NCBI GenBank assembly: GCA_043801445.1
Contig: JAZDMB010000012.1
Coordinates: 714 to 64,713 of the forward strand
DNA: 64,000 nucleotides
Source of the DNA: Planctomycetota bacterium
Lineage (GTDB): Bacteria > Planctomycetota > MHYJ01 > JACQXL01
Direction: 5' to 3'
The first letter of the stretch is position 1. Each line of letters starts with the position of its first letter. This document shows, piece by piece, positions 10,706 through 61,732 of this stretch. The notes beneath the pieces were generated by a model. That model saw only the letters and a list, made by a program, of their open reading frames with translations. It was not told where the DNA came from and did no database searches. The translations under genes were made by a program, and so were the position numbers.

Positions 10706-12055
10706 ATGAAGTCTTTTATTATCTTGTCTATTTTGATAATCTTTATAGTAGTGGCAGGCTATTTTATTATCAAGTGTTATCATCCTGACTCTTTGGTTTC
10801 GCCTCCTTCTAAGCAAGACAAACATACTATAGAAAAACATGTTACAGATAAGAGGGATTCTAATCAAACCAATATCCCCAAAAACATTGTAATAACATCT
10901 GATTTATCTAATCAAACAATAGCATCTGGTTCATCCTGCAGTTATACCACTGCAAAAGATAAGAACTACTCTGAACTTGCCGAACGGCTCCGGCAGACTG
11001 TTCCTGATTCCGAACGACCAGTGAAGATTAAAGAATTCATTCGCCAATTAAAAGAAGCAAAGGCACAATCACCACTATTCATTGGGGCGTGTGTTATGAT
11101 TCGCGCACTTGACGCTAAAGAAGCAATCCCTGAATTAATAAACCTTCTGGATGATGAAGACAAATGCTATATGGCCATGGTAACCCTTGGTGGGCTTGGC
11201 GCCAAAGAGGCAATCCCTAAAATAATAAACCTTCTGGATGATGAACGCGAAGGCCTTACAGCCACAAGAGTTCTTGGTGAACTCGGCGCCAAAGAGGCAA
11301 TTCCTAAATTAATGAATCTGCTGAATCATAAATATGAGGAAATGCGTGTGGCTGCTGTTCAAACTCTCAGCAAACTTGGCGCCAAAGAGGCAATCCCTGA
11401 ATTAACAAATCTGCTGAATGATGAAAGTGGTCAAGTGCGTCTGACTGCCGCTTGTGCTCTCGACAACCTCGGCGTCAGAGATGTAGCAATCCCTGAAATA
11501 ACAAAACTACTGAATGATGAAAGTATTTCAGTGCTACTGTCTGCCGCTTGCGCCCTCGGCGACCTTGGCGCCAAAGATGTAGCAATCACTGAACTAATAA
11601 AACTGCTGAAAACTGGAAAGCTCGCGCCGCCCGTCGCGTCCGTCTTCCGCGCATCCGCCGCTCGTTCACTCGGCAGATTTGACGCCAGAGAATCAATCCC
11701 GGAACTAATAAAACTACTGGATGATGAAGCTTGGGAGGTACGCCAGGCAGCTGGTGATGCACTCGGAGAACTTGATGATAAAGAGATAATCACTGACCCT
11801 AAACCAACGGAACCACTGAGAGATAAAGATTCTTTGTGGGCGTGTAAAATAGCATTGGCTATTAATCCCAAAGATGCCTTAGCTTATCTTTATATGGGAG
11901 TTATTTATCACGATAGATTCGATAACCCTTCCAAGGCAATTTTCTACTATACCAAATATCTGGAATTGGCGTCACCAGATGCACGTGAGCGTGAGGATGT
12001 GGATCGAGGGATTAAGGACTGCAACAAACGCATTAATCATTCTCGTTCTAAGTAA
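10706..12055 (+). CDS. membrane-anchored HEAT-repeat protein, paralog 2
   Basis: Colinear with 8139-9491: same N-terminal TM helix, same HEAT repeats, same C-terminal '...INPKDA.AYL.MG.IY......N.SKA.FYYT.YLELA.PDA.ER.DV.R.IKD......HSRSK'. The ATG at 10706 corresponds to 8139. Confidence 0.85.
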   Translation: MKSFIILSILIIFIVVAGYFIIKCYHPDSLVSPPSKQDKHTIEKHVTDKRDSNQTNIPKNIVITSDLSNQTIASGSSCSYTTAKDKNYSELAERLRQTVPDSERPVKIKEFIRQLKEAKAQSPLFIGACVMIRALDAKEAIPELINLLDDEDKCYMAMVTLGGLGAKEAIPKIINLLDDEREGLTATRVLGELGAKEAIPKLMNLLNHKYEEMRVAAVQTLSKLGAKEAIPELTNLLNDESGQVRLTAACALDNLGVRDVAIPEITKLLNDESISVLLSAACALGDLGAKDVAITELIKLLKTGKLAPPVASVFRASAARSLGRFDARESIPELIKLLDDEAWEVRQAAGDALGELDDKEIITDPKPTEPLRDKDSLWACKIALAINPKDALAYLYMGVIYHDRFDNPSKAIFYYTKYLELASPDAREREDVDRGIKDCNKRINHSRSK

Positions 12056-12142
12056 ATGATATCGGTGTACCTGCGACACACATCTGAACAAGCCAAAAAT
12101 ACCCAAAAACTAACGGGAAATTAATCAACAAAGGATGAATAA

Positions 12143-12437
12143 GTATCCCAAGGGATGACTGGCTTGTTCCAAGGGACGAAGGGTTTGTACTCAAGAACAG
12201 CTGAGTTGTACCAAGGAATAATTGGGCTGTTCCAAAGAACGAACGGTTTGTACTGAGGGACGAAGGGTTTGTACTGAAGAACGACTGAGTTGTACCAAGG
12301 AACAATTGGACTGTTCCAAGGAACGACCGGCTTGTACTGAAGAACGAACGCTGGTACTCAAGAACGAATGGCTTGTACTGAGGAACGAAGGGTTCATCCC
12401 TAGGGCTGAACGGTTTAGACTCAGGGATATCTGAGAT
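12143..12437 (+). repeat. 21-bp tandem repeat array 3 (about 14 units, with an 84-bp higher-order period)
   Basis: Units start at 12166, 12187, 12208, 12229, 12250, 12271, 12292, 12313, 12334 (a 20-bp unit), 12354, 12375, 12396 and 12417. A typical unit is GTACTGAAGAACGACTGAGTT. The 4-unit block 12187-12270 is repeated at 12271-12353. Confidence 0.9.
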
Positions 12438-12532
12438 GTCCTTGTAAAGTTCTAATCAGTGCTATGGCGGTCCCTGACGGAACTGCTTCAGTGAACCTCG
12501 CCCCGTTAGCGGTGGCTTTTACAAGGTTTTCC

Positions 12533-12560
12533 TTGACACAGACTGTTTTTTGATTATAAT
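12533..12560 (+). promoter_or_regulatory. sigma70-like promoter candidate for 12783-14948
   Basis: TTGACA (12533-12538), 16-nt spacer, TATAAT (12555-12560). Implies a ~220-nt structured leader. Confidence 0.4.
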
Positions 12561-12782
12561 AATTAATTAGACGAAGCAAGAAAACTTCGTAACCACAGAC
12601 AAACACAGATTGACACAGATAATTGACGATATTTTATAAGGAATCCATTAGACCAAGATTAATCCTTTCTTGTATTCTTGGTCTCTTTATAGACATATCG
12701 TATTGCTCTGTGAACTCTGTGGCTAATTTTTACCTGTGCCCGTAGGGTATACTTTCCTATACCTTAAAAAAAGGAGTAGTTT

Positions 12783-14948
12783 ATGATTAACATACTGAAA
12801 GGTATCAGCGGATTTATTATAATAGCCATCGTGATAGCATTGGGGTTCGGTATTGTCCGGGCAGTTCCGGTCGGTAAGGAAACGCCAAAGCAGGAGAAAG
12901 CTACACCGGTACAGAGCGAGACCAAAGAAAAAACACCTGCCCGACTGGACACCCAGTCAGGCGGGAAAGAGGAACAAACTCCCCGCGAAAAGGAAATATG
13001 GATTTATAAACTGATTCATAAACTGGAGACTTCGCAAGACCTGTGGGTCAAAGTGGAGGCGGTAAAAAAACTGGGCGAGTTAAAAGACCCCAAGGTAATC
13101 ACGGCACTTGCCAGAGCGCTCAATGACGAAAGTGTTGATATCTGTGTGGAAGCGCTGCGCGCCCTAAAGAAAATAGGCGATGCCGAATCGCTCAAACTAC
13201 TTATGACCGGCACCGTCATCTACGATATGCAGTCACTCCGTTTCTATGCCCTTGAAGCAGCCCTGGCTATCGACCCGGTAAAAACCCGGGAATTCCTTAA
13301 AGCCAATTTCAAAAGCGTATTTCCTAATGTCCGCAATAATGCCGCTGAATCACTGGCGAATCTGGTCACTCTCACCAATAAAAGAGACAAGGAATCTATC
13401 GAACAATTAGTGAGTCTTTTAAGCCATGAACCGAATAAAGACAATCGTGAAAAAATAGCAGAATCACTAAATCTCATTACTCAGGCTGAACTGACCTCTG
13501 CAGAACCCAAAGACTGGCAGGAGTGGTGGCACAAGAATAAAAAAACCATGAGCGAAAATATAAAAACCAAAGAAGTGATTACAGGGACGGAAAAACCGGA
13601 AACAAAACCGAGCCCTGAAAAAAAAGCCAAAGCCATTAAACAGAAAAAAGCGCAGGATGAATTTGATGCGTTCAAAGACAAGACAATCCTGGACAGAAAT
13701 CCCGACGACCCGACCAAATCCTATTTCGCAGGCCGTTCTGAGGAAGGTAAAACGCTCTCAGTAGCCGCATTTGCCAACGGTGACAGCCGCGTCCTGAAAC
13801 TGGTGGAAGACGCCCTTAACTGGCTGCAGCGTCACCAGGAAAAAGAAGGATTCTGGGACTATAACGGCTATGTTAAACACTGCCATTCCAGTCCGCCAGG
13901 GGCAGATATATCTCCGGCACAGGGTAACCCGCCGGAGGTGGGTCTGCCTCAGGCACAGGGCAGCAAGGAAAAAACTGCATCCGACAAGAAGAAGACTGCA
14001 TCCGATAAAACAGACGATACCACCGAGATTAAAGGTGATTATGACGTAGCCGTAACAGGCTTGGCATTACTGGCATTCCTCGGAGCCGGACATACTCATA
14101 TGCCGGGCCAGAAAGTCGGATTACCGGCCGGCGGAAAATATAAACCTACTGTAGAACGCGGACTGCACTGGCTGGTTTCCAATCAGAACGGCGACGGCAG
14201 TTTCCGCAATCCAGTCACAGGCGGTGTCGGCAACAAGGTCAATATGTTTGAACAGGCGATGGCAACACTGGCGATATCCGAGGCATACGGCATGACCGGC
14301 GACGAAACGCTGAAAGTCCCGGCGCAGAAGGCGATGAGCTTTATCAATTATGCCAAGAACCCGGGCAAGGGCTGGCGTTATACGCCTAATTGCAGCGATA
14401 ACGATACCTCTGTTGTCGGCTGGCAGGTCTTTGCACTGAAATCAGGCAAGGTTTCAGGTCTGGACATAAACCGCAACGATTTCGTTGACGCATCCAAATG
14501 GCTGGATGATATGACTAATTTAGAAACTGCCCGGGTCGGTTATAACAAAAAAGGAACCGGCTCTACTGCCATTACTTCTATCGGCATTATCTGCAAGATG
14601 CTTCTGGGCTGGCGTAATGATTCGCCCATTTTACAAAAGGGAGCGGAAATCGTCCTTAAGGATGACTCTTACCAGGGCGAGACACAGGATTTCTATCATA
14701 TCTACCAGACCTCTCTGGCGATGTTCCAGATGGGCGGACGCTACTGGGAAAACTGGAATAGCCAGATGACAAATTTCCTGGGTAATGCAGCCGTCAAAGA
14801 AGGCTGTGAACACGGCAGTTGGTCTGCCCGGATTGAGAAATGGTCTAAAAGCAGGGTTTACACCACAGCACTTGGCGCACTGTCGCTGGAAATCTATTAC
14901 CGATACCTGCCATTTGCCAGAACTGAAAAGTCAGAACAGCCGATGTAG
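12783..14948 (+). CDS. membrane-anchored HEAT-repeat / prenyltransferase-squalene-oxidase-repeat protein
   Basis: N-terminal TM helix. HEAT-like units follow (KVEAVKKLGELKDPKVITALARALNDESVDICVEALRALKKIG). The C-terminal half has terpenoid-cyclase-type repeats (QNGDGSF, GKGWRY, EHGSWS, LGALSLEIYYRY). SD AAAAGGAG. Contains two in-frame GC-rich elements. Confidence 0.85.
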   Translation: MINILKGISGFIIIAIVIALGFGIVRAVPVGKETPKQEKATPVQSETKEKTPARLDTQSGGKEEQTPREKEIWIYKLIHKLETSQDLWVKVEAVKKLGELKDPKVITALARALNDESVDICVEALRALKKIGDAESLKLLMTGTVIYDMQSLRFYALEAALAIDPVKTREFLKANFKSVFPNVRNNAAESLANLVTLTNKRDKESIEQLVSLLSHEPNKDNREKIAESLNLITQAELTSAEPKDWQEWWHKNKKTMSENIKTKEVITGTEKPETKPSPEKKAKAIKQKKAQDEFDAFKDKTILDRNPDDPTKSYFAGRSEEGKTLSVAAFANGDSRVLKLVEDALNWLQRHQEKEGFWDYNGYVKHCHSSPPGADISPAQGNPPEVGLPQAQGSKEKTASDKKKTASDKTDDTTEIKGDYDVAVTGLALLAFLGAGHTHMPGQKVGLPAGGKYKPTVERGLHWLVSNQNGDGSFRNPVTGGVGNKVNMFEQAMATLAISEAYGMTGDETLKVPAQKAMSFINYAKNPGKGWRYTPNCSDNDTSVVGWQVFALKSGKVSGLDINRNDFVDASKWLDDMTNLETARVGYNKKGTGSTAITSIGIICKMLLGWRNDSPILQKGAEIVLKDDSYQGETQDFYHIYQTSLAMFQMGGRYWENWNSQMTNFLGNAAVKEGCEHGSWSARIEKWSKSRVYTTALGALSLEIYYRYLPFARTEKSEQPM
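13927..14006 (+). repeat. GC-rich ~62-bp element, in frame inside CDS 12783-14948
   Basis: ACCCGCCGGAGGTGGGTCTGCCTCAGGCACAGGGCAGCAAGGAAAAAACTGCATCCGACAAGAAGAAGACTGCATCCGATA, translated as NPPEVGLPQAQGSKEKTASDKKKTASD. Confidence 0.8.
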
Positions 14949-14996
14949 CTGTTATATACCAGCAGGCTTTCTCTGTGTACTCTGTGTCTCTGTGGC

Positions 14997-15998
14997 TTAT
15001 CCCCTCAACACGACCACATCAAATGTATTATCCGCTATAGCCGGCTGGTTTAGTAAGATTGAAACACCTGTGCCTTGCGGTAACCCAGGTAACAGGAATA
15101 GTTGCCTGATTAACTGGTCTTGATTCGTGGGAATAGAGTAACCTAAAATCACACCGCCATTCAAATCCGGGTCTCCCAAAGGCGGATATAACCCGCCTAC
15201 TTGTAATGCTGGAATTGTGATGCTGACAATCTTATAACTTAATTTAGTTTTCGATACCGCGCCATCGGCAATTTCACCTGTTGCAACAGGAGGGACTAAC
15301 GGCCTCACCGCTCCACCCGGAACAAAAGACAATTTCTCCGGTGTTACTGCACCGTTACTAATCTTGGCGGTCTCTACTGCGTTCGTGGCAAGTTTAGCAG
15401 CAGTAACTGCGCTGGATGCAATCTTCTGAGCGATTATTGAAGCATCGGCAATCTCATCAGTCGCAACCGGTGGCGTTATCGGGCGGACAATAGACGGCGG
15501 AACAAAAGACAATTTCGCCGGAGTTACCGAGCCATTGGCTATCTTCTCCGTTGTAACCGCACCATTCGCTAACCGAGCACTGCTAACTGCCCCAGATGCA
15601 ATCTTCGCACTCGTTACTGCGCTGGTGGCAATCTTCTCGGTCGTTACTGCGCCATTGATTATCTTCTCGGTGATAACGGTATTCGGTTGTAGGTGAGCGG
15701 TGCTAATTGCGCCATTCGCTAGTCGCTCACCGCTAACCGCTCCAGGGGCAATCTTCAGTGTTGTTACTGCGCCGGTGGCGATTTTCTCAGTTGTGACACA
15801 TGCATCCTTTAACCGGGAACTGCTTACCTGTTTCTCGCCGATTTTATCACGGGTCACCGCTCCATTAGCAATCTTTTCGGTAGTTACACTTGCAACCTGT
15901 AACTTAGAACTTGAAACCTGCAACTCGCCTATTTTAGGCGCTGTCACCGCGCCGTTAGCAATATGCTCGGTCTTTACCTCATTCGGTAATAATGACAT
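14997..15998 (-). CDS. decapeptide-repeat (fibre-like) protein of unknown function, cassette copy 1 gene B
   Basis: About 19 units of 'T(E/D)KIA.GAVT'-type 10-residue repeats, then a C-terminal domain nearly identical to that of 61733-62587. No signal peptide. Confidence 0.8.
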   Translation of the reverse strand: MSLLPNEVKTEHIANGAVTAPKIGELQVSSSKLQVASVTTEKIANGAVTRDKIGEKQVSSSRLKDACVTTEKIATGAVTTLKIAPGAVSGERLANGAISTAHLQPNTVITEKIINGAVTTEKIATSAVTSAKIASGAVSSARLANGAVTTEKIANGSVTPAKLSFVPPSIVRPITPPVATDEIADASIIAQKIASSAVTAAKLATNAVETAKISNGAVTPEKLSFVPGGAVRPLVPPVATGEIADGAVSKTKLSYKIVSITIPALQVGGLYPPLGDPDLNGGVILGYSIPTNQDQLIRQLFLLPGLPQGTGVSILLNQPAIADNTFDVVVLRG

Positions 15999-16010
15999 AA
16001 TATACCTTTC

Positions 16011-16058
16011 AAATCCCCCTCTTCTCCCCCTTTGATAAAGGGGGATGAAGGGGGATTT
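16011..16058 (-). terminator. conserved two-tier G5/C5 hairpin between cassette genes A and B (copy 1)
   Basis: AAATCCCCC-N-CCCCCTTTG..CAAAGGGGG-N-GGGGGATTT. Flanked by an A-tract and a T-tract. Confidence 0.5.
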
Positions 16059-16073
16059 ATCTATTCGTTTTAA

Positions 16074-16733
16074 CTATGGACTGACCGTGCATTTGGCGGT
16101 TTCGCTGAACGGACCCGTGCGTATCTTCTTATCAAACCACTGCGCCCGGTATTCCACATTAGTCGGCTCGGTTATTGCCAGATTGTGTAAATAGGGGCTG
16201 TTGGTGTCATCCGCCACGAATGTCCACGGCCCGCTTTCTATCCGATACGAGATTCTTGCACCGGCAATGTCAGCCGGCTTGGCATTGCGTTTCTCATTGG
16301 ACGGGTTAACGCCGAAATGAACCGTCACCTGTCCGCGCTGTTTCCAGTCCAGAATCAGGTTAGGTGGCGCCAGATTCAGCACATAGTCCGGCGGAATCGG
16401 GGTCGGTTCCCTATCCGGCACGGTAATTGCCAGAATTTCGCGGTTTGCGTCGGTCATCCCCGGATGTTTCTGGAGCATCCCTGCCACAGCCCTGACCGCA
16501 TCTTTAGCAGCATCACGCAATTCATCCTTGTTTTCTGCGGCTGATTGGGCGGTATTTTGTGCCGTCTGGAGCGCCACATAACCAATCAGCCAATCATCAT
16601 AGGCATCGGTTACTGCGGTAATCAAAGCCGGGGCAATCCCCAGCGGAGTCGCAATCACACTGATATTAGTGCTGAAATTACGAAGCCATTCGTCAAACTG
16701 GGCGTCCACCCTTGGTATATAATCTCTTGCCAT
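16074..16733 (-). CDS. hypothetical protein (helical N-terminal half, beta-rich C-terminal half), cassette copy 1 gene A
   Basis: Paralog of 60939-61613 (YIP..DA.F..W..NF..., ...DTNSPY.HN..., ...AQWFD...R.GPF). Strong SD AGGAGGTGAAAT before the ATG. Confidence 0.8.
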   Translation of the reverse strand: MARDYIPRVDAQFDEWLRNFSTNISVIATPLGIAPALITAVTDAYDDWLIGYVALQTAQNTAQSAAENKDELRDAAKDAVRAVAGMLQKHPGMTDANREILAITVPDREPTPIPPDYVLNLAPPNLILDWKQRGQVTVHFGVNPSNEKRNAKPADIAGARISYRIESGPWTFVADDTNSPYLHNLAITEPTNVEYRAQWFDKKIRTGPFSETAKCTVSP

Positions 16734-16796
16734 ATTTCACCTCCTACTTTACCATAAGTTATTACAGTTACAGTTGTTATGCAAATTATCCGGTGC

Positions 16797-17076
16797 CTGA
16801 AACAAACCGGTCGTTGCTCTCTACGAACCGGTCGTTGCCCTCTACGAACCGTTGTTGTCATCTACGAACCGGTCGTTGCCTTCTACGAACTAGTCGTTGC
16901 CCTCTACGAACCAGTCGTCGCTCTCTACGAACCGGTCGTTGCTTTCTACGAACCGGTCGTTGCCCTCTACGAAACATCGTTGCCTTCTACAAACCGGTCG
17001 TTGCCCTCTACGAATCCCTTGTCGCTCTCTACGAACGAGTTGTCGCCCTCTACGAACTTCTCGTAGCTCTCTACAA
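16797..17076 (-). repeat. 21-bp tandem repeat array 1 (about 13 units), upstream of cassette copy 1
   Basis: The plus-strand unit is CTACGAACCGGTCGTTGCCCT (gene orientation TCGTAGAGGGCAACGACCGGT). Two units are 20 bp, which shifts every reading frame. Confidence 0.9.
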
Positions 17077-17089
17077 ATCACCTCCTTTC
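17077..17089 (-). promoter_or_regulatory. 13-nt complement of the 16S rRNA 3' tail (GAAAGGAGGTGAT) at the head of array 1
   Basis: The minus strand reads GGAAAGGAGGTGATTTGTAG, the same motif and TTG as at 60533-60549, but here the TTG is followed immediately by TAG. Confidence 0.6.
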
Positions 17090-17102
17090 CGTATAGTTAA
17101 TA

Positions 17103-18119
17103 TTAAGAAAAGAGCATTACGATTTTAGTAGTCAGATAGGCAATCAATCCGCAACAGGGGAAGGTAAGAATCCAGGCAAAGACCATCTGACCGGAGACGC
17201 CCCAGCGGACTGAGGATAGACGTTTAGTAGCACCCACGCCCATTATTGCCGTATTGATGGTATGGGTGGTGGAAAGGGGTATACCCAGACGCGAGGCTAT
17301 TTCAATGGTCACAGCTGCAGCAGTCTCAGCCGCAAAGCCATTCACCGGCTCCAACCTGGTTATCTTGAATCCCATCGTCTTCATAATTTTCCAGCCTCCG
17401 AAGGCAGTGCCGATAGCCATTGTCATGGCACATAGAATGATAATCCAAATAGGAACATGGAATCCCTGGCTTTTGAATACATCCATTGGAATCACACCAC
17501 CCAAGGCTAGAGCCAGCGCGAACACTCCGATAAATTTTTGGCCGTCGTTAGTGCCGTGGCTGAAAGCCATAAAGGCAGAAGAGAAAATCTGGGCTTTACT
17601 GAATATATTTACGCCGGCGCCCCGCTTGATTCTGGCAAAAAGCAGGTAAATCAGGGACATAAGAATAAATGCTCCGATAAATCCGAGGAAGGTGGAAAAT
17701 GCCAGTCCAATTAGGACCTTTTTCCAGCCAGCCCAGAGAAGAACTGATACACCTGTCTTGGCTATGCCCGCGCCGGCAAGCCCGGCAACCAAGGCATGCG
17801 ATTCACTGGTAGGCAATCCGAAATACCAAGCAACGGTGGAGAATATAATAATACCCAGCATGGCTGATCCGATGGTGGTCAGGTTAATCACCGAGGGATC
17901 AACGATGCCTTTGCCTATGGTCATTGCCACGGCCGTGCCAGCCAGCAGAACTCCCATCAGGTTCAAAATCACGGTCATAAATAAAGCCTGAACTGGCGAG
18001 AGTACACGGGTTGATACTACAGTAGCCATAGCATTGGGCGCATCGGTCCAGCCGTTGACAAACTCTGCCCAGAGAATAAGGAGCATGACTATAATTAATC
18101 CGATTGAGATATCAGGCAT
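17103..18119 (-). CDS. PiT-family inorganic phosphate transporter
   Basis: Polytopic membrane protein with N- and C-terminal PiT signatures (WTDAPNAMATVVSTR; FSHGTNDGQKFIG). Overlaps the upstream PhoU-like DUF47 gene, the usual pairing. Confidence 0.9.
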   Translation of the reverse strand: MPDISIGLIIVMLLILWAEFVNGWTDAPNAMATVVSTRVLSPVQALFMTVILNLMGVLLAGTAVAMTIGKGIVDPSVINLTTIGSAMLGIIIFSTVAWYFGLPTSESHALVAGLAGAGIAKTGVSVLLWAGWKKVLIGLAFSTFLGFIGAFILMSLIYLLFARIKRGAGVNIFSKAQIFSSAFMAFSHGTNDGQKFIGVFALALALGGVIPMDVFKSQGFHVPIWIIILCAMTMAIGTAFGGWKIMKTMGFKITRLEPVNGFAAETAAAVTIEIASRLGIPLSTTHTINTAIMGVGATKRLSSVRWGVSGQMVFAWILTFPCCGLIAYLTTKIVMLFS

Positions 18120-18744
18120 ATTTTAGGATAACCCCCTCAATAACATTAGCCACATCTTCGCAGTAATCAATGGCAGTTTCCAAATCTTCATAGATTTCTT
18201 TCCATTTAATGACATTAATAGGATTATTCTTCTCGCGCTCAAAAAGTGAAGTCATTGCCTTACGCAATAATTGGTCTCCTTCATTTTCAACTGTATGAAT
18301 ATTAACACAATGAGATATTGTTTCTTTAGAATTCTTGATATTTCGTAAGCCGGTAATTGCCTGAGTCACGATATCGGTGGCTTTAATCAACAATTCAGCA
18401 AATGACTTGGCTTCAGGAGTAATCTCATCTATTTTATAAAGCGCTAAACGGCCGCTTGCCCCATCCATCAGGTCAAGAACATCATCTAACTTGGTAATGA
18501 GTTCGTGGATATCTTCGCGGTCAATTGGAGTTATAAATGTCTTATTAAGCATTTCTATAGTTTGATGAGTAAGTTCGTCGCCTTGATGTTCAATATCTTT
18601 AATGATACTTACTTTTTCTCCAAGTGATTCAGGGTAGTTTTTCATCAAGTCATCTAATGCCCGGGCGCCGGCTGAAACATTCGCAGATGATTTTTCAAAC
18701 ATCTCGAAGAACGCCTTGTCCTTGGTTACCAGTGAACTAATCAT
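18112..18744 (-). CDS. DUF47 / PhoU-like phosphate-transport accessory protein
   Basis: Helical-bundle protein with the typical start '...KDKAFFEMFEK' and conserved '..ENEGD.L.R', coupled to the PiT gene. Start is uncertain: ATG at 18744 (AAAGGA 8 nt upstream), 18765 or 18783. Confidence 0.8.
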   Translation of the reverse strand: MISSLVTKDKAFFEMFEKSSANVSAGARALDDLMKNYPESLGEKVSIIKDIEHQGDELTHQTIEMLNKTFITPIDREDIHELITKLDDVLDLMDGASGRLALYKIDEITPEAKSFAELLIKATDIVTQAITGLRNIKNSKETISHCVNIHTVENEGDQLLRKAMTSLFEREKNNPINVIKWKEIYEDLETAIDYCEDVANVIEGVILKYA

Positions 18745-18891
18745 ATTTGTTCCTTTCTTGAACATCTGGCGCCGAAGCGCCATGGCGCCCTTATGGCGCC
18801 ACTTTCTTTTAGTTGCTGGAAGTATAAGAAAGATGTGTTAAGGAATTATAAAGAATTTATTAAATCTTGGTGAACCCCGTTAGAAGTGGTA

Positions 18892-20319
18892 TTACGGAAA
18901 TCTGATAGACAACTTGATAGTAAATGTGCTTCCTTGATTGGGTTTGCTTGTGACAGATACCTCGCCTTTGAGGGTCTGGATGATGTGTTTAACAATGGAC
19001 AAGCCCAGACCGGTGCCGCCCATTTCTCGTGAGCGGGATTTGTCCACCCGATAAAACCTTTCAAATACCCGCGAGAGGTCTTCTTCCGGTATACCGATAC
19101 CGTTATCTTCAACAGAGATGATTACATTACCAGCTTCAGATGTTACACTAATTTCAATACGGCCCCCTTCAGACGTATATTTGATGGCGTTATCCACGAT
19201 ATTGTTTATTGCCTTTCTTAATAATTCCGCATCTGTCTGGATAGACGTCATATCCGCCGGTATTTTCTTTGAAACGGTTTGTTTCTTGAGTATGGCAAAT
19301 GGTTCTAAATTATTAAGAACTGAATGAATTATTTCATTTACATCGCAGGTTTTAATCAAGGCAATGTCTTTTTTGTATTCCAGTCGCGAGAGTTCCAGCA
19401 AGTCTTGGACAAGATTATTTAGTTGGTTGACATTGTGGTCAATAATGGCGAGGAATTCCTGCATCTTATCCCAGTCCTCTTTTTTGCCTTCCTTTATGGT
19501 TTCCACATAACCCTTGATAAGCGCCAGTGGTGTGCGCAGTTCGTGCGAGGCATTAGCCACGAAGTCACGTCTGAGCGTTTCGTATTTGCTCGCTTCACTG
19601 AAGAGTTCCCGGAGTTTACTATTCATCAGGTTAATGGCTTCAGCCAGCGCACCGATTTCATCACCTGTCTTGATGGTTATCCGGCGGCTGAAATCTCCCT
19701 TGCTGATTGATTCGGCTACTGAAACCATTTCCTTAACCGGTCTAACTATCCGGCTGACCAGCCAGAACCCCATAACTAAAGCAATCAGTAACGCAAATAT
19801 AAAAGTGATGCCTACGGCATGATAAACCTTATCGATGATAAGCGAAACCTGCCTTAAGGGCAAAGACACGCGAATAATTACATCATCCGGCTTATTATTA
19901 TCGAACGGGATTGCCAAATATATCATATCAATAGCCATCGTGTGACTGTAGCGGATATTCTGCCCTATCTTTTTCTGTCTGGCGCTAAGTACTTCCGGAC
20001 GGTCATTGTGGTTCTCCATCGTGGTGTGGTCATAACCAGAATCCGCCAACACATTGCCATTCTTATCAATCACGGTTATCCTGGTCTGGATGTCTTTGCC
20101 CAGTTCTGTGATATACTCATTGAGTTTATTTGATTCATGAGAGCAATCCCTGATAAAAGCCCGGACCGTATAGGCAGTATTTTCCAGATGCTGGCTGATT
20201 TCATCCCGGTATGATTGGGAGAATTTCTCTATGGTTACGATAGAAAAAAGTCCCAGCGAGGTAATAATCAGCACCAGATATGTAGCAATAAGTTTACGGA
20301 AGAGGCGGTTCTTGAACAT
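18892..20319 (-). CDS. sensor histidine kinase (TM-sensor-TM, HAMP, HisKA, HATPase_c), PhoR-like by context
   Basis: H-box SHELRTPL; N/G boxes (DNAIKYT, DNGIGIP, GGTGLGLSIVKH). The ATG at 20319 (MFKNRLF) is preferred over the TTG at 20331. Confidence 0.9.
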   Translation of the reverse strand: MFKNRLFRKLIATYLVLIITSLGLFSIVTIEKFSQSYRDEISQHLENTAYTVRAFIRDCSHESNKLNEYITELGKDIQTRITVIDKNGNVLADSGYDHTTMENHNDRPEVLSARQKKIGQNIRYSHTMAIDMIYLAIPFDNNKPDDVIIRVSLPLRQVSLIIDKVYHAVGITFIFALLIALVMGFWLVSRIVRPVKEMVSVAESISKGDFSRRITIKTGDEIGALAEAINLMNSKLRELFSEASKYETLRRDFVANASHELRTPLALIKGYVETIKEGKKEDWDKMQEFLAIIDHNVNQLNNLVQDLLELSRLEYKKDIALIKTCDVNEIIHSVLNNLEPFAILKKQTVSKKIPADMTSIQTDAELLRKAINNIVDNAIKYTSEGGRIEISVTSEAGNVIISVEDNGIGIPEEDLSRVFERFYRVDKSRSREMGGTGLGLSIVKHIIQTLKGEVSVTSKPNQGSTFTIKLSIRFP

Positions 20320-20372
20320 ATTGAATCGCAATAAGTATATCTAAGATTCTACCGATATCATATAATTAATCT
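20320..20372 (-). promoter_or_regulatory. 53-bp duplicated upstream region, copy at the histidine-kinase gene
   Basis: ATTGAATCGCAATAAGTATATCTAAGATTCTACCGATATCATATAATTAATCT differs at 3 positions from 21358-21410. The minus strand contains TAGAAT. Confidence 0.4.
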
Positions 20373-20374
20373 TT

Positions 20375-20656
20375 TTATCTTACGCCGTTGACTTTAGCAC
20401 GACAATCTTCAACTACTTCTTTGGGAATCATCTTTAAGGCGATTATAATAAGCATCGGCACAATAACCAAATCATCAAGTTGGCCAAATATCGGGATGAA
20501 ATCCGGAATAATATCAAAGGGAAGAAAGATATAGCCCAGAGCCAGCCAAAGAAATATCTTCGCACGCATTGGTGTCCGTTTGTCTTTCAGGACCAGCCGG
20601 TAAACATGGATTTCTTGTTTCAGTCGCTTTACCGCAGATTTCCATTTACTAATCAT
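20375..20656 (-). CDS. DUF1232 (YkvA-like) small membrane protein
   Basis: Characteristic 'PFDIIPDFIPIFGQLDDL' motif and two hydrophobic helices. Confidence 0.75.
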   Translation of the reverse strand: MISKWKSAVKRLKQEIHVYRLVLKDKRTPMRAKIFLWLALGYIFLPFDIIPDFIPIFGQLDDLVIVPMLIIIALKMIPKEVVEDCRAKVNGVR

Positions 20657-20670
20657 TTATTTTATCCTGA

Positions 20671-21342
20671 TTATGTGAACTTATATCCAACGCCACGGAC
20701 GGTCTCAATGAACGAGCCGGATTTACCGAGTTTTTTCCTGAGTGATGCGATATGAACGTCAATGGTCCGGTCAATGACCATAGCGTCGTCGCCTCGCCCG
20801 GCTGTAATCAGGTCATCGCGTGAAATGACCTGACCCCGGCGGTTAATCAGATACCAAAGTAAGTTAAATTCGGTCTGGGTAAGTTCTATTTTCTTATTTT
20901 TAACCTCAACAGTTCTGCCATTGTAATCAATAGCGATATCGTCCAATTTGATGATGTCCTTAAATTTAGATGGCTCAAATCGGCGCAGAATCGCCTTGAC
21001 CCGTGCCACCATCTCACGCGGGCTGAAGGGCTTGGTGATGTAATCATCAGCGCCCAATTCAAGTCCGAGTATTTTATCTATTTCCTGTGACTTGGCAGTC
21101 AGCATAACGACCGGAATGCGGACGGTTTCTGGTGCGGCTTTAAGCCGTTTGCAAACATCCCATCCATCCATTTTGGGAAGCATAATGTCAAGCAGAATCA
21201 AGTCCGGCTTGTGCTTCTGGGCAATATCCAGTCCCTCAATACCATTCTTGGCGCCAATCACCAGATATCCTTCCTTAGAAAGATGGTGGTCAACCAGTTT
21301 AATCAGGTCTTTCTCGTCATCTATAACCAGAATGGTTTTCAT
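20671..21342 (-). CDS. OmpR/PhoB-family response regulator
   Basis: Receiver domain (ILVIDDE, ...DLILLDIMLP..DG, ...LTAK) plus a winged-helix output domain (LT.TEF.LL..L, ...VRGVGYKF). The ATG at 21342 (MKTILV) is preferred over the TTG at 21357. Confidence 0.92.
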   Translation of the reverse strand: MKTILVIDDEKDLIKLVDHHLSKEGYLVIGAKNGIEGLDIAQKHKPDLILLDIMLPKMDGWDVCKRLKAAPETVRIPVVMLTAKSQEIDKILGLELGADDYITKPFSPREMVARVKAILRRFEPSKFKDIIKLDDIAIDYNGRTVEVKNKKIELTQTEFNLLWYLINRRGQVISRDDLITAGRGDDAMVIDRTIDVHIASLRKKLGKSGSFIETVRGVGYKFT

Positions 21343-21357
21343 AGTTGGGTTCTCCAA

Positions 21358-42456: not shown

Positions 42457-45042
42457 TTATCTAATCTTTTCCTCGAGAATTTTCACACTTTTAACAGCTA
42501 ATTCCCATTGTTTACTTAGATGTGCATAGCCAAATATGCCTATAAGATACGTAGTATCTTTGGTATTTCCGAACAAATTACCCTTAATTGGAATCGTTCC
42601 ACAAAGGACATCATCTATGAAACAACGAAATTCCGTTAGACGTTCCTTCGATACACCCAGTTCCAGTGTTATTTTAAAATCTTCTGCAGGGGTAATCTGT
42701 TTCTGAAAAGATAACCATTCGACTGGCGGTGCATCTGGTTTATCAGAAAATCCATAAACAAATTGTTGCTTGTTACGAGCAATAAAAAAAGAATTGTCTT
42801 TTGATGAATTAGAGAGATGAATTCCACCAATAGTATCACTTGCCAAATCAATCTTTATTCTTGCTTCCAATTTAATAAAAGATACTTTGGAAACTGTTTT
42901 TTCAATAACAGTTAATCCTGTTTCGTTCAATGATTGAACGCCTTTAAATAAACACTGTTTATTAATAATGGCAATTTCAACACCATATTTTTCCGTTTCA
43001 GTCCAACCGCGCCCAAGAACATTGCTGTCAATTCTTTCAAAATTATCCAACCAAATAGACTGATTAGAAGCTCGGCTAATACTTTCTAAACTATCACGCG
43101 CATAAGCATTAGCATTCGATTTATCTATAGAAATAGACTCTTCTAATCTTTTTATGGCTGGTTCCACATTAAGTTCAGTATAATCAATATAAGCCAATAA
43201 ATTAAGGGAAGGAGCATAATTCTTAAGGCGATTATTTTCAGTTAATATTTTCCTTGCTTGTTTTATATCACCATTCCCCACAAAAGTAAGAGCCAAATTA
43301 AAATCATCCATCCCACTTATCAGATTAGAAGGCATCTGATTTAAGTAGGCTTTATAATACTGAATAGCCTGTTTATAATCTTTTTGATAAAGTGAAATCA
43401 TCGACAGATAGTAAAGTGTTTCGGTAAATGATGGTAAATTTGTCAGACACCATGTAAAGTTTTGCTGGGCATCTTGAAAATTCTGCTGACTAAAATATAA
43501 TTGCCCCATCACATAATGAGCAGCAAAACTATCCGGCATCATCTTAAGTGCGGAATTAAATAAAACCAATGCTTCATCTGTCTTATTATTTATCCATTTA
43601 AGATAACCTAATCCAATAAAAGATACTTCATCAGTAGGATTCAGGTTGCCATATCCATTAAATAGCATCTCAGCCTCAGGATAAAGATTTGCTGCAATAT
43701 AAAGAAAACCTAAATTATTCCATGCTGAAGTACAATCAGGCTTATTCGATATAGATTTAATGAAATACTGGCTGGCTTTAGAGTAATCGGCATCTAGAAC
43801 AAAAAGCATCCCCAAAATATTCATGGTATGAGCAGATATATCTGGCCGTTCCGCAATCTTTAAAAGAATCTCTCGCGCTTTACCTAAATTACCCCGCTGA
43901 TACTCCATTAATCCAAGTCCTTCAAAAACTTTTACTTCTGCCGGGCTAAGACCTTTTAATCGTTCATATATCTTTAATGCCGAATCGTAATCACGAGTCA
44001 AACAATATAGATTAGCTAAGTTAAACAATGCTTCAACATAATTGGAGTTGACGCCTACAGATTTTTCGTACGAATCTAAAGCTTCCCCGAATAATCTTAA
44101 TGTTTCGTAAGCCTCACCTAATCTGAAATAAATTACTTCCTTATTAACCAGGTCTGATTGAAGTGCTTTTTGATAAAGAGCAAATCCATTATCAAAGTCT
44201 TTTTTCTCAAGATAATAATCAGCAAGTTTAAGATAGAATTTAAGTTCATGATTATTAATTTTAATGGCATTTTGTAATGCCATAGCTGCCTTATCTTCTA
44301 ACCCTTTTTCAAAACACCACGCTGACAATCTCCACCAAGAATGAGCATCATCAACAGAAATCTTTTTCAGTTCAATTTCGTATAATTCATCGTTAGTATA
44401 AGTACGTTTTATATCTGTTAGATTCTGTCTTTTGTAACTAGCAACAGTATTACGCCCAGCCGGAACAAACCATATCACATCGTTATCTTCACCTATATAC
44501 TTACCTCTTACCTCTGTTCCATTTTGTAAAATAAGTACGTCTTCATCTATCAATGGTTCAGAAGTAGAAGTTTTCTTATCAGGAGAAGAATTCAGATTTC
44601 GATTCGTTTCAGCAATAAGTGTCTTCAGTGTTTCGGCAGTTGGCAAAGAACTTATAGCAGGTGAACTAAGCTTTATAGAATTATCATAAGAGTAATTTTT
44701 ACCAGTTTGTACTTTTAAATTACCTTTATCACTATAACAACTATCAGGAAAAGGTTTAAATCCGACCAAAGTAAATTGTCTCTGTATTGGTTCAGGCAAG
44801 GAAAGATCAATGAAATTTCCGCCTTTTTGAGTTTGAGAAACAAATGGGTTCCTACCAGTGTTCAGTCGAACAGCAGAAGAAATAGATTCTTTAGGCGGCA
44901 TGCCATAATAGGTTCGTGGTTTCTGATTTAATATCCATTCTTCTGATGTTTCATTTTTCTCGAAAACTAACATCCATAAAATCAGCCCTAAAAATATGAT
45001 GGCTATGATAATAATAAATTTTTCTTTAGTTAACCCAAACAT
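42457..45042 (-). CDS. membrane-anchored TPR-repeat protein with C-terminal jelly-roll-like domain
   Basis: N-terminal TM helix (FIIIIAIIFLGLILWMLVF), about 10 TPR units, and a beta-rich C-terminal ~200 aa. The ATG at 45042 is preceded by a G-rich SD (AGGGGGGGG); the track start at 45069 overlaps the upstream gene. Confidence 0.8.
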   Translation of the reverse strand: MFGLTKEKFIIIIAIIFLGLILWMLVFEKNETSEEWILNQKPRTYYGMPPKESISSAVRLNTGRNPFVSQTQKGGNFIDLSLPEPIQRQFTLVGFKPFPDSCYSDKGNLKVQTGKNYSYDNSIKLSSPAISSLPTAETLKTLIAETNRNLNSSPDKKTSTSEPLIDEDVLILQNGTEVRGKYIGEDNDVIWFVPAGRNTVASYKRQNLTDIKRTYTNDELYEIELKKISVDDAHSWWRLSAWCFEKGLEDKAAMALQNAIKINNHELKFYLKLADYYLEKKDFDNGFALYQKALQSDLVNKEVIYFRLGEAYETLRLFGEALDSYEKSVGVNSNYVEALFNLANLYCLTRDYDSALKIYERLKGLSPAEVKVFEGLGLMEYQRGNLGKAREILLKIAERPDISAHTMNILGMLFVLDADYSKASQYFIKSISNKPDCTSAWNNLGFLYIAANLYPEAEMLFNGYGNLNPTDEVSFIGLGYLKWINNKTDEALVLFNSALKMMPDSFAAHYVMGQLYFSQQNFQDAQQNFTWCLTNLPSFTETLYYLSMISLYQKDYKQAIQYYKAYLNQMPSNLISGMDDFNLALTFVGNGDIKQARKILTENNRLKNYAPSLNLLAYIDYTELNVEPAIKRLEESISIDKSNANAYARDSLESISRASNQSIWLDNFERIDSNVLGRGWTETEKYGVEIAIINKQCLFKGVQSLNETGLTVIEKTVSKVSFIKLEARIKIDLASDTIGGIHLSNSSKDNSFFIARNKQQFVYGFSDKPDAPPVEWLSFQKQITPAEDFKITLELGVSKERLTEFRCFIDDVLCGTIPIKGNLFGNTKDTTYLIGIFGYAHLSKQWELAVKSVKILEEKIR

Positions 45043-45052
45043 AATCCCCCCC

Positions 45053-45844
45053 CTATTTAGCAGGTACATCTGCTAATTTAACACCAGCAATAATTAAAGT
45101 AGCCGTAATGTTATCCGAATCAGGATTTGCATTTTCTATAATTGCTTTCTCTAAAGCAATGAATCTTTCAGCATTTCGAAGCAGATTAATAAATTTCATT
45201 ATCGAATCGAAACTCCCATTTATTTTGATGAAAACTAAATTTTTAGTGCCTAAGTTAGTCTTGATTACTGTTTCTTTGATATCCTTGAACTCCTTAAAAT
45301 CGCTTTCGGTAGCACCAAAAGATATTACTTTTTGACAATTACACTCCATCGCTAAATTTACTAATTGTTCAATCATGTCCAATTTTTCATAGTATAAAGA
45401 AATCTTATCAGAAGATGCATTAGTTAGTGGAAACTCAAATTTAGAAGGTATCGGAATACCTTTTTGCGCGGCTTTTTTTTCCATCCGCTTCTGAGCCTCT
45501 TTCACTAATGTTTGGAAATTTAAGATTAACTCACCTGGTTGTTTATTAATGTCCGGTAATTGATAACCGGCTAATGACTTGAATTTTATTTTATTCTTCA
45601 ATGTGGAATATCTACTTTCCATAAATTTCAATTCTTCTTCGGCATTCTGGATGCTCTTCTCGGCGATAAAATCTCCCTTTTTCACTTTATTCTCTATATC
45701 AAGACGAATCTTAGATTGTTCTTGCTTTAATCTAAGGATTTCCTGTTGATTTGGAATAATAAACAAATAATATCCACCAAGCACTAAAATTAAGGTGCCT
45801 ATAATCAATAACACAAATTTCTTTTCTTTAATTAACCAATACAT
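45053..45844 (-). CDS. PilO-like type IV pilus assembly protein
   Basis: Single N-terminal TM helix, a coiled coil, then an alpha/beta C-terminal domain. Positioned directly after a PilM/PilN-like gene. Weak assignment, from architecture and context. Confidence 0.6.
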   Translation of the reverse strand: MYWLIKEKKFVLLIIGTLILVLGGYYLFIIPNQQEILRLKQEQSKIRLDIENKVKKGDFIAEKSIQNAEEELKFMESRYSTLKNKIKFKSLAGYQLPDINKQPGELILNFQTLVKEAQKRMEKKAAQKGIPIPSKFEFPLTNASSDKISLYYEKLDMIEQLVNLAMECNCQKVISFGATESDFKEFKDIKETVIKTNLGTKNLVFIKINGSFDSIMKFINLLRNAERFIALEKAIIENANPDSDNITATLIIAGVKLADVPAK

Positions 45845-45846
45845 AA

Positions 45847-47535: not shown

Positions 47536-47590
47536 AATCAGTTACCTCTTAAGTTTTTCAGAAGCCCTATTAATTTAATTCCCCTTATTA

Positions 47591-50572: not shown

Positions 50573-50761
50573 AAAAAATAATTGCAATTACCCTATTCTT
50601 TGTCCACTTGTTCTAAGGATATAATAGCTTTTATTGTATGATTTATATTTATTTTGCCAAGAAAAACATTATTTTTTATATTATTATATTCTTGAAAACA
50701 CTGCCTGATTTTTATATACTTCTATGAATATTTATTAACCAAGTAATGAAAGGAGTTAGTT

Positions 50762-60557: not shown

Positions 60558-60725
60558 GGCAGGGAAGGTTTTTCAGACGTCTGGAATAGTTTTCCAGATA
60601 TCTGGAACAGTTTCCCATATGTCTGGAATTATTTTCCAGATGTCTGGAATGATTTCCCAGATGTCTAGAATAGTTTTCCAGATGTATGGGAAAGTTTTCT
60701 GGATGTTCGTGAAAGTCCTACGAAT
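60558..60725 (+). repeat. 21-bp tandem repeat array 2 (8 units), upstream of cassette copy 2
   Basis: Units fall exactly at 60558, 60579, 60600, 60621, 60642, 60663, 60684 and 60705. The consensus GTCTGGAATAGTTTTCCAGAT carries the internal dyad TCTGGAA-N5-TTCCAGA. Confidence 0.9.
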
Positions 60726-60938
60726 GTCCATAACCCCGATGGTTATCGGGATAAGAGGTTGTCCCTAACGGGACTCCCTGCGGTCGTAACGACCATAGGT
60801 CTAACAGCCTCTAATGCTATACAATATAAGGACTTAGAAGCCCCGATGTCGCTGACGCTCATCGGGATAAGACCCAGTAACGCCCTTACCCGATTAGCAT
60901 CGGGTAATTGCTAACTGGCTCTAAAAAGGAGATGTAAG

Positions 60939-61613: not shown

Positions 61614-61646
61614 AAAAATAAGTAACTTGCCACAGAGGCACTAAGT

Positions 61647-61691
61647 AAATCCCCCCTTCCCCCTTTGTCAAAGGGGGAGTGAGGGGGATTT
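61647..61691 (+). terminator. conserved two-tier G5/C5 hairpin between cassette genes A and B (copy 2)
   Basis: AAATCCCCCCTTCCCCCTTTGTCAAAGGGGGAGTGAGGGGGATTT followed by AATT. Same architecture as 16011-16058. Confidence 0.5.
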
Positions 61692-61732
61692 AATTCCTTC
61701 GTGTCTTCGTGTCAGAAAGGTAATTTAATTTT

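Follow-up and report, generated by a model that had tools for sequence, protein, structure and literature searches.

Ten-residue repeats of the kind described here are common in phage fibres. They occur in the fibres of the T7-like cyanophages NATL2A-133, P-SSP2 and S-TIP37, in the tail fibre of S-TIM5, and in the 'host specificity protein J' of DSS3 phages. The phage fibres grouped in phrog_892, phrog_28766, and phrog_21412 have the ten-residue unit in common with the protein studied here. Phage fibre proteins are 500-2300 aa long, carry N-terminal virion-attachment domains, and are encoded within structural modules. In the literature, we found no account of the ten-residue repeat or its fold, and nothing relevant on DUF5907 (PF19264), a repeat of unknown function that some distant homologs carry according to precomputed annotation.

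The only solved entry whose sequence has decapeptide repeats (about five units) is chain H of 9EG4, from Legionella phage LME-1. It was deposited as 'orf16' and is presumably the LME-1 decoration protein. This head decoration protein is trimeric and projects from the capsid, and the map lacks a model of its distal part (PMC12407071). On the cellular side, Bdellovibrio bacteriovorus encodes the mosaic adhesive trimer (MAT) fibres. MAT proteins are about 1000 aa long and combine an invariant N-terminal domain with regions of trimeric beta-helix, and one of them was expressed from residue 21, behind a leader sequence (PMC10769870).

Here we analysed a 64-kb window –the whole stretch of 64,000 nucleotides– from an uncultivated Planctomycetota, which contains the paralogous genes B1 and B2. 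Our main reading, to which we give a probability of about 0.6, is that gene B encodes a phage-type fibre (docking peptide, spacer, and knob) within a chromosomal, multi-copy, transcribed cassette. The 9-residue N-terminal peptide would dock the fibre to the product of the upstream gene A, and the ten-residue units would form a spacer shaft, broken by one or two proline-rich hinges of 20 residues that keep the phase. A beta-sandwich knob of ~82 residues would occupy the far end, and a homotrimeric fibre would hold it out, the number of units setting the distance. The features of gene B are as follows.

14997-15998, minus strand: gene B1, candidate fibre protein, 333 aa plus stop (open reading frame, periodicity, PHROG tail-fibre matches)
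15972-15998, minus strand: B1 N-terminal peptide MSLLPNEVK, residues 1-9, proposed partner-specific docking end
15522-15971, minus strand: B1 shaft part 1, residues 10-159, 15 ten-residue units
15462-15521, minus strand: B1 linker 1, PAKLSFVPPSIVRPITPPVA, residues 160-179, proline-rich, exactly two units long, an arm of DNA repeat D18
15342-15461, minus strand: B1 shaft part 2, residues 180-219, 4 units
15282-15341, minus strand: B1 linker 2, PEKLSFVPGGAVRPLVPPVA, residues 220-239, a duplicate of linker 1
15000-15245, minus strand: B1 C-terminal knob, residues 252-333, predicted six-strand beta-sandwich
61733-62587, plus strand: gene B2, the paralogous candidate fibre, 284 aa, 20 units, one linker, and a knob of the B1 type

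At the repeat level, the first-pass annotation of this DNA had described a strict ten-residue phase, and the autocorrelation (BLOSUM scores against 200 shuffles) bore it out in both paralogs: lag 10 reached z = 13.1 in B1 and 13.3 in B2, lag 30 reached 18.4 and 15.0, and the adjoining lags were negative. Its count of 15-19 repeats was slightly too low. With residue 10 as the start, 25 units are in phase in B1 (21 canonical and four within the two 20-residue proline-rich linkers), and 20 in B2 (18 canonical and two in the linker). The consensus of the shaft unit is x-x-K/R-I/L-A-x-G-A-V/I-T/S, in agreement with the one first proposed. Over the 45 units of both proteins, position 3 is K/R in 38, position 4 is I/L in 41, position 9 is V/I in 42, and position 10 is T/S in 33.

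An 11-residue period, and a 30-residue one as a structural necessity, were rejected on 119 homologs. For the former, lag 11 was strongly negative and lag 10 positive. A 30-residue super-period exceeded the ten-residue signal in just 25% of the homologs, so it looks like a trace of duplication history rather than a requirement of the fold.

The duplicated linker of B1 is real: it occupies units 16-17 and 22-23, and it is also seen at the DNA level as repeat D18 (15318-15365 and 15498-15545, 79% identity). The paralogs differ in the number of repeats and also in their order, as had been noticed from the sequence, with units 8-9 of B1 corresponding to units 14-15 of B2. The linker and C-terminal domain are 92% identical between B1 and B2 in protein and 87% in DNA, and the first 70 residues are 63% identical.

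The repeat region, and only this region, links gene B to phage fibres. It matched phrog_892 (E = 1.4e-42) and phrog_28766 (E = 3e-32), and the repeat is present in tail-fibre or host-specificity genes of 113 phage records. The fold matches of B in BFVD were predicted fibres of T7-like cyanophages (best E = 7e-8), and B and the phage fibres are alike in the local geometry of their predicted structures. A profile search against the PDB gave a sole match, 9eg4_H, the LME-1 capsid entry (E = 6.7e-9); a PDB sequence search with B1 alone gave just chance-level matches to penicillin-binding proteins. Altogether, this supports the fibre shaft that had been one of the two structures first suggested.

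No Pfam or NCBIfam model reached its threshold on B1, B2, A1, or A2. The faint match of B2 to DUF5907 scored 13.4 bits against a gathering threshold of 27, and B1 had no match to it. A match to a characterised repeat family with a defined role had been named as grounds against the first-pass reading, and the repeats go halfway there: they fall within a class annotated as phage fibres, but we found neither a named model nor a structural description of the repeat as such.

Unlike the phage fibres, B proteins are 243-460 aa long, have just nine residues before the first repeat, and lie in the core chromosome behind gene A. The N-terminus of B, MSLLPNEVKTEH, continues directly into the repeats; no N-terminal virion-attachment domain such as PF03906 was matched in Pfam, and the gene is not placed in a phage or prophage structural module. 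Unlike B, the LME-1 decoration protein has an N-terminal capsid-binding base, and the C-terminal domain of 9eg4_H shows no detectable kinship to the B knob (profile against PDB, E = 0.11). As a kind, the ten-residue repeat is not new, being widespread in phage fibres, and what stands out is just its setting in a cell and next to a partner gene.

The knob was modelled by AlphaFold2 as a six-strand beta-sandwich (~82 residues, pLDDT 85, pTM 0.69). Taken alone, it matched no Pfam or PHROG family, and it had only 22 relatives among 1.84 billion representative proteins. Two of these 22 lie in phage head-gene modules, a further likeness to LME-1. In some relatives the knob is joined to a structural domain of phage heads (phrog_1731, E = 1e-34 and 3e-43), and in one viral contig (L016) the knob gene stands between those for the major head protein and for head closure. 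Scanning a genome collection with the knob returned one other species only. The knob may serve in binding. Foldseek gave nothing significant against the PDB, the best match being the C-terminal domain of the AP22 tailspike (E = 0.09). Its further non-significant matches were a lectin and R2 pyocin fibre domains, which are leads only.

Each cassette has the same order: a 21-nt tandem array, gene A, a strong hairpin, and gene B. The remaining features of the two cassettes are the following.

16074-16733, minus strand: gene A1, partner protein, 219 aa
60939-61613, plus strand: gene A2, partner protein, 224 aa
16015-16060, minus strand: hairpin between A1 and B1, -33.4 kcal/mol, z = -5.1
61646-61692, plus strand: hairpin between A2 and B2, -32.1 kcal/mol
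16805-17057, minus strand: 21-nt tandem array at the head of cassette 1, 12 copies by TRF
60562-60716, plus strand: 21-nt tandem array at the head of cassette 2

The hairpin core is conserved. It recurs in the A-B interval of copy 2 and of two further loci (L002 and L008), and in another one (L003) it closely precedes B. An Rfam search of the cassette found no family.

The N-terminus of the fibre tracks the upstream partner gene, as observed in 13 loci. The motif M.L.P.EVKT was present in 44 of the 120 best homologs. Fibres with this N-terminus (N1-type) had an A-family gene directly upstream in 10 of 10 loci, and the motif was found only behind genes of this family. Fibres with other N-termini were preceded by a homologous gene of 264-267 aa in all three loci of this type, and one of them (L010) bears a knob of the B1 type. 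Shaft and knob are exchanged between cassette classes, and the N-terminus follows the partner gene. From this pattern, we infer that B docks to A through its N-terminal peptide.

The cassette is transcribed in groundwater. Perfect metatranscriptome contigs covered B1 at 14910-15061 and 15508-15708, and A1 at 16047-16395. Moreover, a perfect RNA contig of 384 nt covered 16674-17057, including the 21-nt array of cassette 1, and another RNA contig was found at 60688-60877 in cassette 2. In this groundwater metatranscriptome, the RNA depth was gene-specific, and some neighbouring genes had no RNA at all. RNA contigs of A had a depth of about 18-25, and those of B about 4.

The cassette belongs to the core chromosome and is not part of a prophage. 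Its neighbours are a phosphate transporter, a PhoU-like gene, a HEAT-repeat protein, a TonB-dependent receptor, ribosomal proteins, SecY, and RpoA, and no phage genes were found within the 64-kb window. The neighbour genes of the window showed no synteny with other fibre loci. In a related MAG, we counted at least eight fibre genes and at least five partner genes. Phage fibre modules have been taken into a multi-copy, transcribed, non-prophage setting.

This setting brings B close to the MAT fibres of B. bacteriovorus. Both are cell-encoded, multi-copy, phage-like fibres with a conserved proximal end and swapped C-terminal tips, and B belongs to a multi-copy chromosomal family in which these tips are exchangeable. 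Unlike MAT, B has neither a leader sequence nor an invariant N-terminal anchoring domain, and it depends on a partner gene; no sequence relation between them appeared in the PDB searches. Reading the sequences directly, no signal peptide or membrane segment was seen in either A or B, which leaves a surface-binding fibre without an evident export route. The fibre would sit somewhere in or on the cell. If displayed, it would be the second cellular repertoire of shuffled fibres after the Bdellovibrio MAT, and would belong to a phylum with little-known surface biology.

Among the wider interpretations, one is possible and we put it forward tentatively: the A-B cassettes and those with the 264-aa partner could together be a cell-owned, phage-independent, and previously undescribed fibre apparatus. 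The partner protein would grip a short trimeric fibre by its N-terminal peptide, and shaft lengths and phage-derived knobs would be shuffled among about a dozen chromosomal copies. Together with the intergenic hairpin, the leader arrays of 21 nt may decide which copies are made and how much fibre is produced per partner. The outcome would be a MAT-like repertoire in a non-predatory phylum, with new anchoring and export, or else the decoration of an intracellular protein shell.

Alternatively, the fibre could serve a particle of phage origin whose genes lie elsewhere in the genome –a tailocin, gene transfer agent, injection system, or prophage–, with the A-B cassettes providing alternative or head fibres. 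We consider this unlikely. Phage structural proteins are the only relatives of the shaft and the knob, and the absence of signal peptides would fit cytoplasmic assembly. There is also a precedent in the gene transfer agent of Rhodobacter, which has some fibre genes outside its main cluster. However, the window is free of phage genes, gene A had no relative among 2.9 million viral contigs, the fibre and partner genes are multiplied in the related MAG, and the cassette is transcribed in situ alongside housekeeping genes.

Returning to the phage-type fibre in a cellular cassette, its shaft is most likely homotrimeric. This reading is in line with a remote knob relative (P0236) that is fused to collagen triple-helix repeats (PF01391, 2.4e-10). 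Collagen triple-helix repeats form obligate trimers. The AlphaFold2 monomer model of B had only moderate confidence (pLDDT 64, pTM 0.30) and no strands, each unit being a helical turn of three residues followed by seven extended residues, and Foldseek found no match for the full-length model in the PDB. The beta-solenoid that had been suggested at first was not shown. The B proteins of Planctomycetota are the shortest and cleanest examples of the repeat that we found (nine residues, the repeats, and an 82-residue knob), which makes them good material for solving the fold of the shaft.

A monomeric beta-solenoid, pentapeptide-repeat-like or triangular with 30 residues per turn, instead of an intertwined trimer, seems quite improbable to us. 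Such a fold would suit the hydrophobic residue found every five positions (lag-5 z = 5.1) and the strong 30-residue super-period of B1 and B2. Homologs also matched the pentapeptide protein HetL (E = 0.002) and DotG (E = 0.0018), but faintly and far below the cut-off. AlphaFold2 is generally good at modelling solenoids, and yet it returned the strandless model described above. Besides, no pentapeptide Pfam family was matched, the super-period prevails in a minority of homologs only, and knob relatives are joined to trimeric collagen repeats. The pentapeptide-repeat fold itself was rejected, given the lack of a Pfam match, the dominant lags of 10 and 30, the absence of strands, and a HetL match that came from one homolog and was below threshold.

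As for variation, the canonical units number between 12 and 21 in paralogs with the same knob. Wherever the linkers are canonical, the phase is exact, with the knob tyrosine at residue 165, 205, or 255. A variable shaft on a constant distal domain had been proposed from the two paralogs, and it held for the knob type of B, which some 20 proteins of 243-367 aa have in common at 88-96% identity. It did not hold across the family, in which the tips are swapped. The N1-type fibres carry many unrelated C-terminal domains; inspection by eye distinguished at least three tip types, and C-terminal motifs many more.

The first-pass annotation had further suggested length or antigenic variation by repeat recombination, which we found unsupported. 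The 30-nt units of B share a mean DNA identity of 44%, and TRF recovered only 2.3 weak copies of the unit within the gene; the long, near-identical tandem DNA repeats of a contingency locus are missing. The longest exact direct repeats, 19 nt in B1 and 12 nt in B2, are too short, and exact repeats too sparse, for recombination or slippage to work efficiently. Five related alleles from four metagenome samples were all exactly 243 aa long and differed by substitutions only. Regarding strain heterogeneity of B1, no DNA run contained more than 5% of its sampled words (10% for the whole cassette).

Contingency variation, with frequent copy-number change by slippage or homologous recombination leading to ongoing length or antigenic variation, is thus highly improbable, even if the unit number varies among same-knob paralogs and the contigs of relatives aligned to B1 omit in-phase blocks (one omits 544 nt and has 34 different letters instead, for a net loss of 510 nt, or 17 units), as these joints come from single short contigs of 90% likeness and are of a kind that the tool flags as unreliable.

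Shaft variation looks like slow modular evolution rather than active repeat recombination. The differences among paralogs in shaft length, hinges, inserted modules, and knobs would have arisen by in-phase gain and loss of units together with module exchange over evolutionary time, and rapid slippage would not be their source. The conservation of the knob would fit a folding or registration domain, or a conserved ligand, equally well. Within the knob class of B, the knob is the most conserved part of the protein, the opposite of a typical fast-evolving receptor-binding tip.

At the architectural level, gene B is best read as a phage-type fibre in which a docking peptide leads into a spacer of ten-residue repeats with hinges and then a small beta-sandwich knob, and which has been taken up by a cassette that is chromosomal, transcribed and present in several copies. 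Its trimer state, its docking to the partner A, the knob ligand and the fibre location are what we infer. Two copies were present, and tblastn found no third copy or fragment in the 64-kb window:

14997-15998, minus strand: gene B1, open reading frame of 333 aa
61733-62587, plus strand: gene B2, paralog of B1, open reading frame of 284 aa

The first-pass annotation had described a strict ten-residue repeat, and BLOSUM62 autocorrelation of the repeat region (against 200 shuffles) bore this out: z-scores for B1 and B2 were 13.1 and 13.3 at lag 10, 18.4 and 15.0 at lag 30, and 5.1 and 3.8 at lag 5, with negative values at the lags adjoining the peaks. Counted from residue 10, there are 25 in-phase units in B1 (residues 10-259) and 20 in B2; the layout confirms the repeat, and the 15-19 units first proposed were slightly too few. 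Among these 45 units, position 3 is K/R in 38, position 4 is I/L in 41, position 9 is V/I in 42 and position 10 is T/S in 33. The Pro-rich linkers (KLSFVP..RP..PPVA) occupy two unit pairs in B1 (160-179 and 220-239) and one in B2, each of exactly 20 residues, so that the repeat phase is kept. The linker duplication already noticed in copy 1 is also seen in the DNA (15318-15365 and 15498-15545, 79% identity). Across 119 homologs, lag 10 was positive throughout and lag 11 strongly negative, and lag 30 exceeded lag 10 in only 25%. We read the 30-residue super-period as a lineage-specific trace of three-unit block duplications and not as a property of the fold.

Neither Pfam nor NCBIfam has a model that matched B at threshold (DUF5907 reached 13.4 bits, below its cut-off of 27). 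PHROGs tail-fibre families matched the repeat region only (phrog_892, E = 1.4e-42; phrog_28766, 3e-32; phrog_21412, 1e-23), and tblastn found the repeat in 113 of 50,697 phage records, annotated as tail fibre, host specificity protein J or hypothetical protein, with hosts including cyanobacteria (T7-like and T4-like cyanophages), Gordonia, Lactobacillus and Marinitoga. Among all PDB sequences, the family profile matched a single chain, 9eg4_H ("orf16", E = 6.7e-9), from the capsid of Legionella phage LME-1 (PMC12407071). The head decoration protein of this phage is described as trimeric and projecting from the capsid, with its distal part left unmodelled (PMC12407071); we infer that orf16 is this protein. 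Together, these matches make the repeat a known kind of phage-fibre element, one that is common in the shafts but has no name. A literature search found no structural description of it.

The AlphaFold2 model of the B1 monomer (53-sequence alignment; pLDDT 64, pTM 0.30, about 80 pLDDT in the first eight units) gave units of a three-residue helical turn followed by seven extended residues. It contained no strands and gave no support to a beta-solenoid, one of the two forms first suggested. One would expect such a model from a single chain of an intertwined oligomer modelled alone, which is no proof of a trimer. Foldseek found no PDB neighbours of the model; against BFVD it matched predicted fibres of T7-like cyanophages (E3SP39, 7e-8; M1UH48, 3e-7) and crAss-like tail fibres, in every case with the low TM score that extended chains would be expected to give.

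The knob (the last ~82 residues) is 88-96% identical across about 20 proteins, and phmmer found only 22 relatives among 1.84 billion representative proteins. B1 and B2 knobs share 91% protein identity, and where their residues agree, about 25% of the codons do not; thus, selection and not a very recent copy event explains the conservation. No Pfam or PHROG family matched the knob. The remote relatives are small proteins, where it follows a small number of decapeptide units, collagen repeats or a phage head domain. In P0236 it is preceded by collagen triple-helix repeats (PF01391, 2.4e-10), from which we argue that the knob would work in a trimer, and in P0234 and P0240 by a complete phage head structural domain (phrog_1731, 1e-34 and 3e-43). 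Four viral contigs encode the knob, and on two of them, from IMG/VR, a relative of the B knob ends small phage proteins of 165-167 aa:

L016, 9773-10270: knob gene between a major head protein gene (phrog_1357, 1.6e-49) and a head-closure gene (phrog_8040, 8.6e-51)
L018, 9761-10264: knob gene directly after a 353-aa gene

The first position is where genes for head decoration or head fibres usually lie. The 353-aa gene had no PHROG match, and we take it for a capsid gene from its position only. The knob itself, modelled from the alignment of its relatives, is a six-strand beta-sandwich (pLDDT 85, pTM 0.69) with no significant PDB neighbour; the best matches (E = 0.09-0.2) were a tailspike C-terminal domain, a lectin and R2 pyocin fibre domains.

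Proteins sharing this knob range from 243 to 367 aa, with 10-20 canonical units (regular-expression count) and 0-3 linkers.

Lengths of proteins with the same knob as B1 (L, loci or contigs; P, homologous proteins)
243 aa: L004-L008
284 aa: B2
288 aa: L009
290-310 aa: P0010, P0011, P0005, P0006, P0007, P0009
333 aa: B1
347 aa: P0003
351 aa: L003
357 aa: P0001, P0002, L010
367 aa: L011

About half of them carry an extra module of ~50 residues (SNSVGYLEIINGS...FEWIAPGGGG). In those with canonical linkers and without this module, the knob Tyr falls at residue 165, 205 or 255, so the length differences are exact multiples of ten. The idea of a variable shaft on a constant end therefore holds for this knob class. 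Active repeat recombination, suggested as its source, is not supported: the 30-nt units of B1 average 44% identity (maximum 83%), the longest exact direct repeats are 19 nt in B1 and 12 nt in B2, TRF scarcely detects the tract, and substitutions are the only differences among five alleles from four metagenome samples, each 243 aa long (shafts 75-98% and knobs 88-96% identical). The module lies between shaft and knob as SNSVGY(L/S)EIINGS.EP..IRA.D.P.NGE.PSYN....FEWIAPGGGG in P0001, P0002, P0005-P0011, L010, L011 and L001 (8001-9380). It resembles "G-Q-V-L...W" motifs of phage tail fibres, and a "WIAG tail domain protein" is the annotation beneath the repeat match in one phage record.

The B-type N-terminus (M.L.P.EVKT) was found in 44 of the best 120 homologs, ending in the B knob in six, in two other recognisable tips in two each and in further endings in 34. 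Judged from these sequences, the variable end at family level is the tip.

In all ten cassette copies with enough upstream sequence (the two window copies, L001, L002, L005-L009 and L011), the gene immediately before the fibre gene belongs to the A family; at five loci, gene A is conserved in its N-terminal half only. A second partner of 264-267 aa immediately precedes fibres with other N-termini (MAYRRTYFDGQVTT..., MTYNPRYF..., MARILYDR...) in L010, L021 and L022 (3/3). These partners are 32-66% identical among themselves, without Pfam or PHROG match:

L010, 592-1395: second partner gene
L021, 2469-3263: second partner gene
L022, 1560-2354: second partner gene
L019, 5773-6567: second partner gene

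The N-terminus thus tracks the partner (10/0 vs. 0/3; Fisher exact p about 0.004, our own arithmetic). Shaft units and knobs, in contrast, pass from one cassette class to the other: the L010 fibre has the same repeats and knob as B1 on a different N-terminus. On these grounds, we propose that B may dock to A through its N-terminus. No relative of gene A was found in IMG/VR. One related MAG has at least eight fibre genes and at least five A genes, by the names in its source.

In both window copies, and in L001 and L005, the two loci checked, gene A is headed by a tandem array of 21-nt units; the window has a third array of this kind:

16805-17057: array of copy 1
60562-60716: array of copy 2
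12164-12394: third window array
L001, 7128-7243: array
L005, 1448-1636: array, unit GCGGACATCCGCAAGAGTTGT, nine copies, 92% matches

Unit sequences are unrelated between cassettes. No array was detected in L010 or seen in the stretches upstream in L021 and L022. The third window array lies upstream of a HEAT/prenyltransferase-like gene, unrelated to the cassettes. A groundwater metatranscriptome (X1) contained perfect contigs over several cassette parts, their depth being a poor measure of expression:

16674-17057: array and start of A1, depth 8, perfect 384-nt contig
16047-16395: A1, depth 18-25
15508-15708: B1, depth 4.4
14910-15061: B1 3' end, depth 2.6

Depth was zero at 17068-17200 and over several neighbouring genes, and 13-17 in the phosphate-transport genes. 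Such uneven depth, differing from gene to gene, speaks for RNA and not for contaminating DNA. In a second metatranscriptome, a stretch of 192 nt within B1 was matched perfectly; of copy 2, the leader (60688-60877) was the one part found in RNA. Within 11000-21000, the phosphate transporter and PhoU-like genes (17103-18783) and A1 were best represented in X1, and the adjacent histidine kinase and response regulator genes (18892-21357) had no X1 contigs.

A conserved, very stable hairpin of about 45 nt (AAAUCCCCC..CCCCCUUUNUCAAAGGGGG..GGGGGAUUU) lies just upstream of B, and between A and B wherever the contig includes A:

16015-16060, minus strand: hairpin of copy 1, A1-B1, -33.4 kcal/mol, z = -5.1
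61646-61692, plus strand: hairpin of copy 2, A2-B2, -32.1 kcal/mol, z = -4.0
L002, 3014-3032, and L008, 2442-2460: core CCCCCTTTNTCAAAGGGGG between A and B
L003, 64-82: core CCCCCTTTNTCAAAGGGGG just upstream of B

It has no Rfam match and persists even at loci with a diverged gene A. Many different sequences flank its core, which is strongly over-represented among metagenome and metatranscriptome contigs (summed depth up to 1869). Partial termination here would agree with A having greater depth than B, and the hairpin may act as a partial terminator or stabiliser setting the A:B ratio.

The cassettes sit in core chromosome: the window also has genes for a phosphate transporter, a PhoU-like protein, a HEAT-repeat protein, a TonB-dependent receptor, ribosomal protein S5, SecY, RpoA, LysRS and DapA; none of these neighbours was found near cassettes at other loci. 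Among cellular systems, the nearest analogue in principle is the mosaic adhesive trimer (MAT) fibre family of Bdellovibrio bacteriovorus, defined by a leader sequence and an invariant N-terminal domain (PMC10769870). However, B has neither, and direct reading of A and B found no signal peptide or hydrophobic segment. Minimal architecture, a partner-linked N-terminus, a knob akin to phage head-module proteins and the cellular context set this fibre apart from known systems. Elsewhere in the window, a minus-strand gene string (42457-50587) codes for a TPR protein of 870 aa, a PilM/FtsA-like protein of 562 aa and a protein of 998 aa that has three FHA/YscD-like cytoplasmic domains, and a pseudopilin-like gene with an N-terminal methylation motif (62673-63674) adjoins cassette 2.
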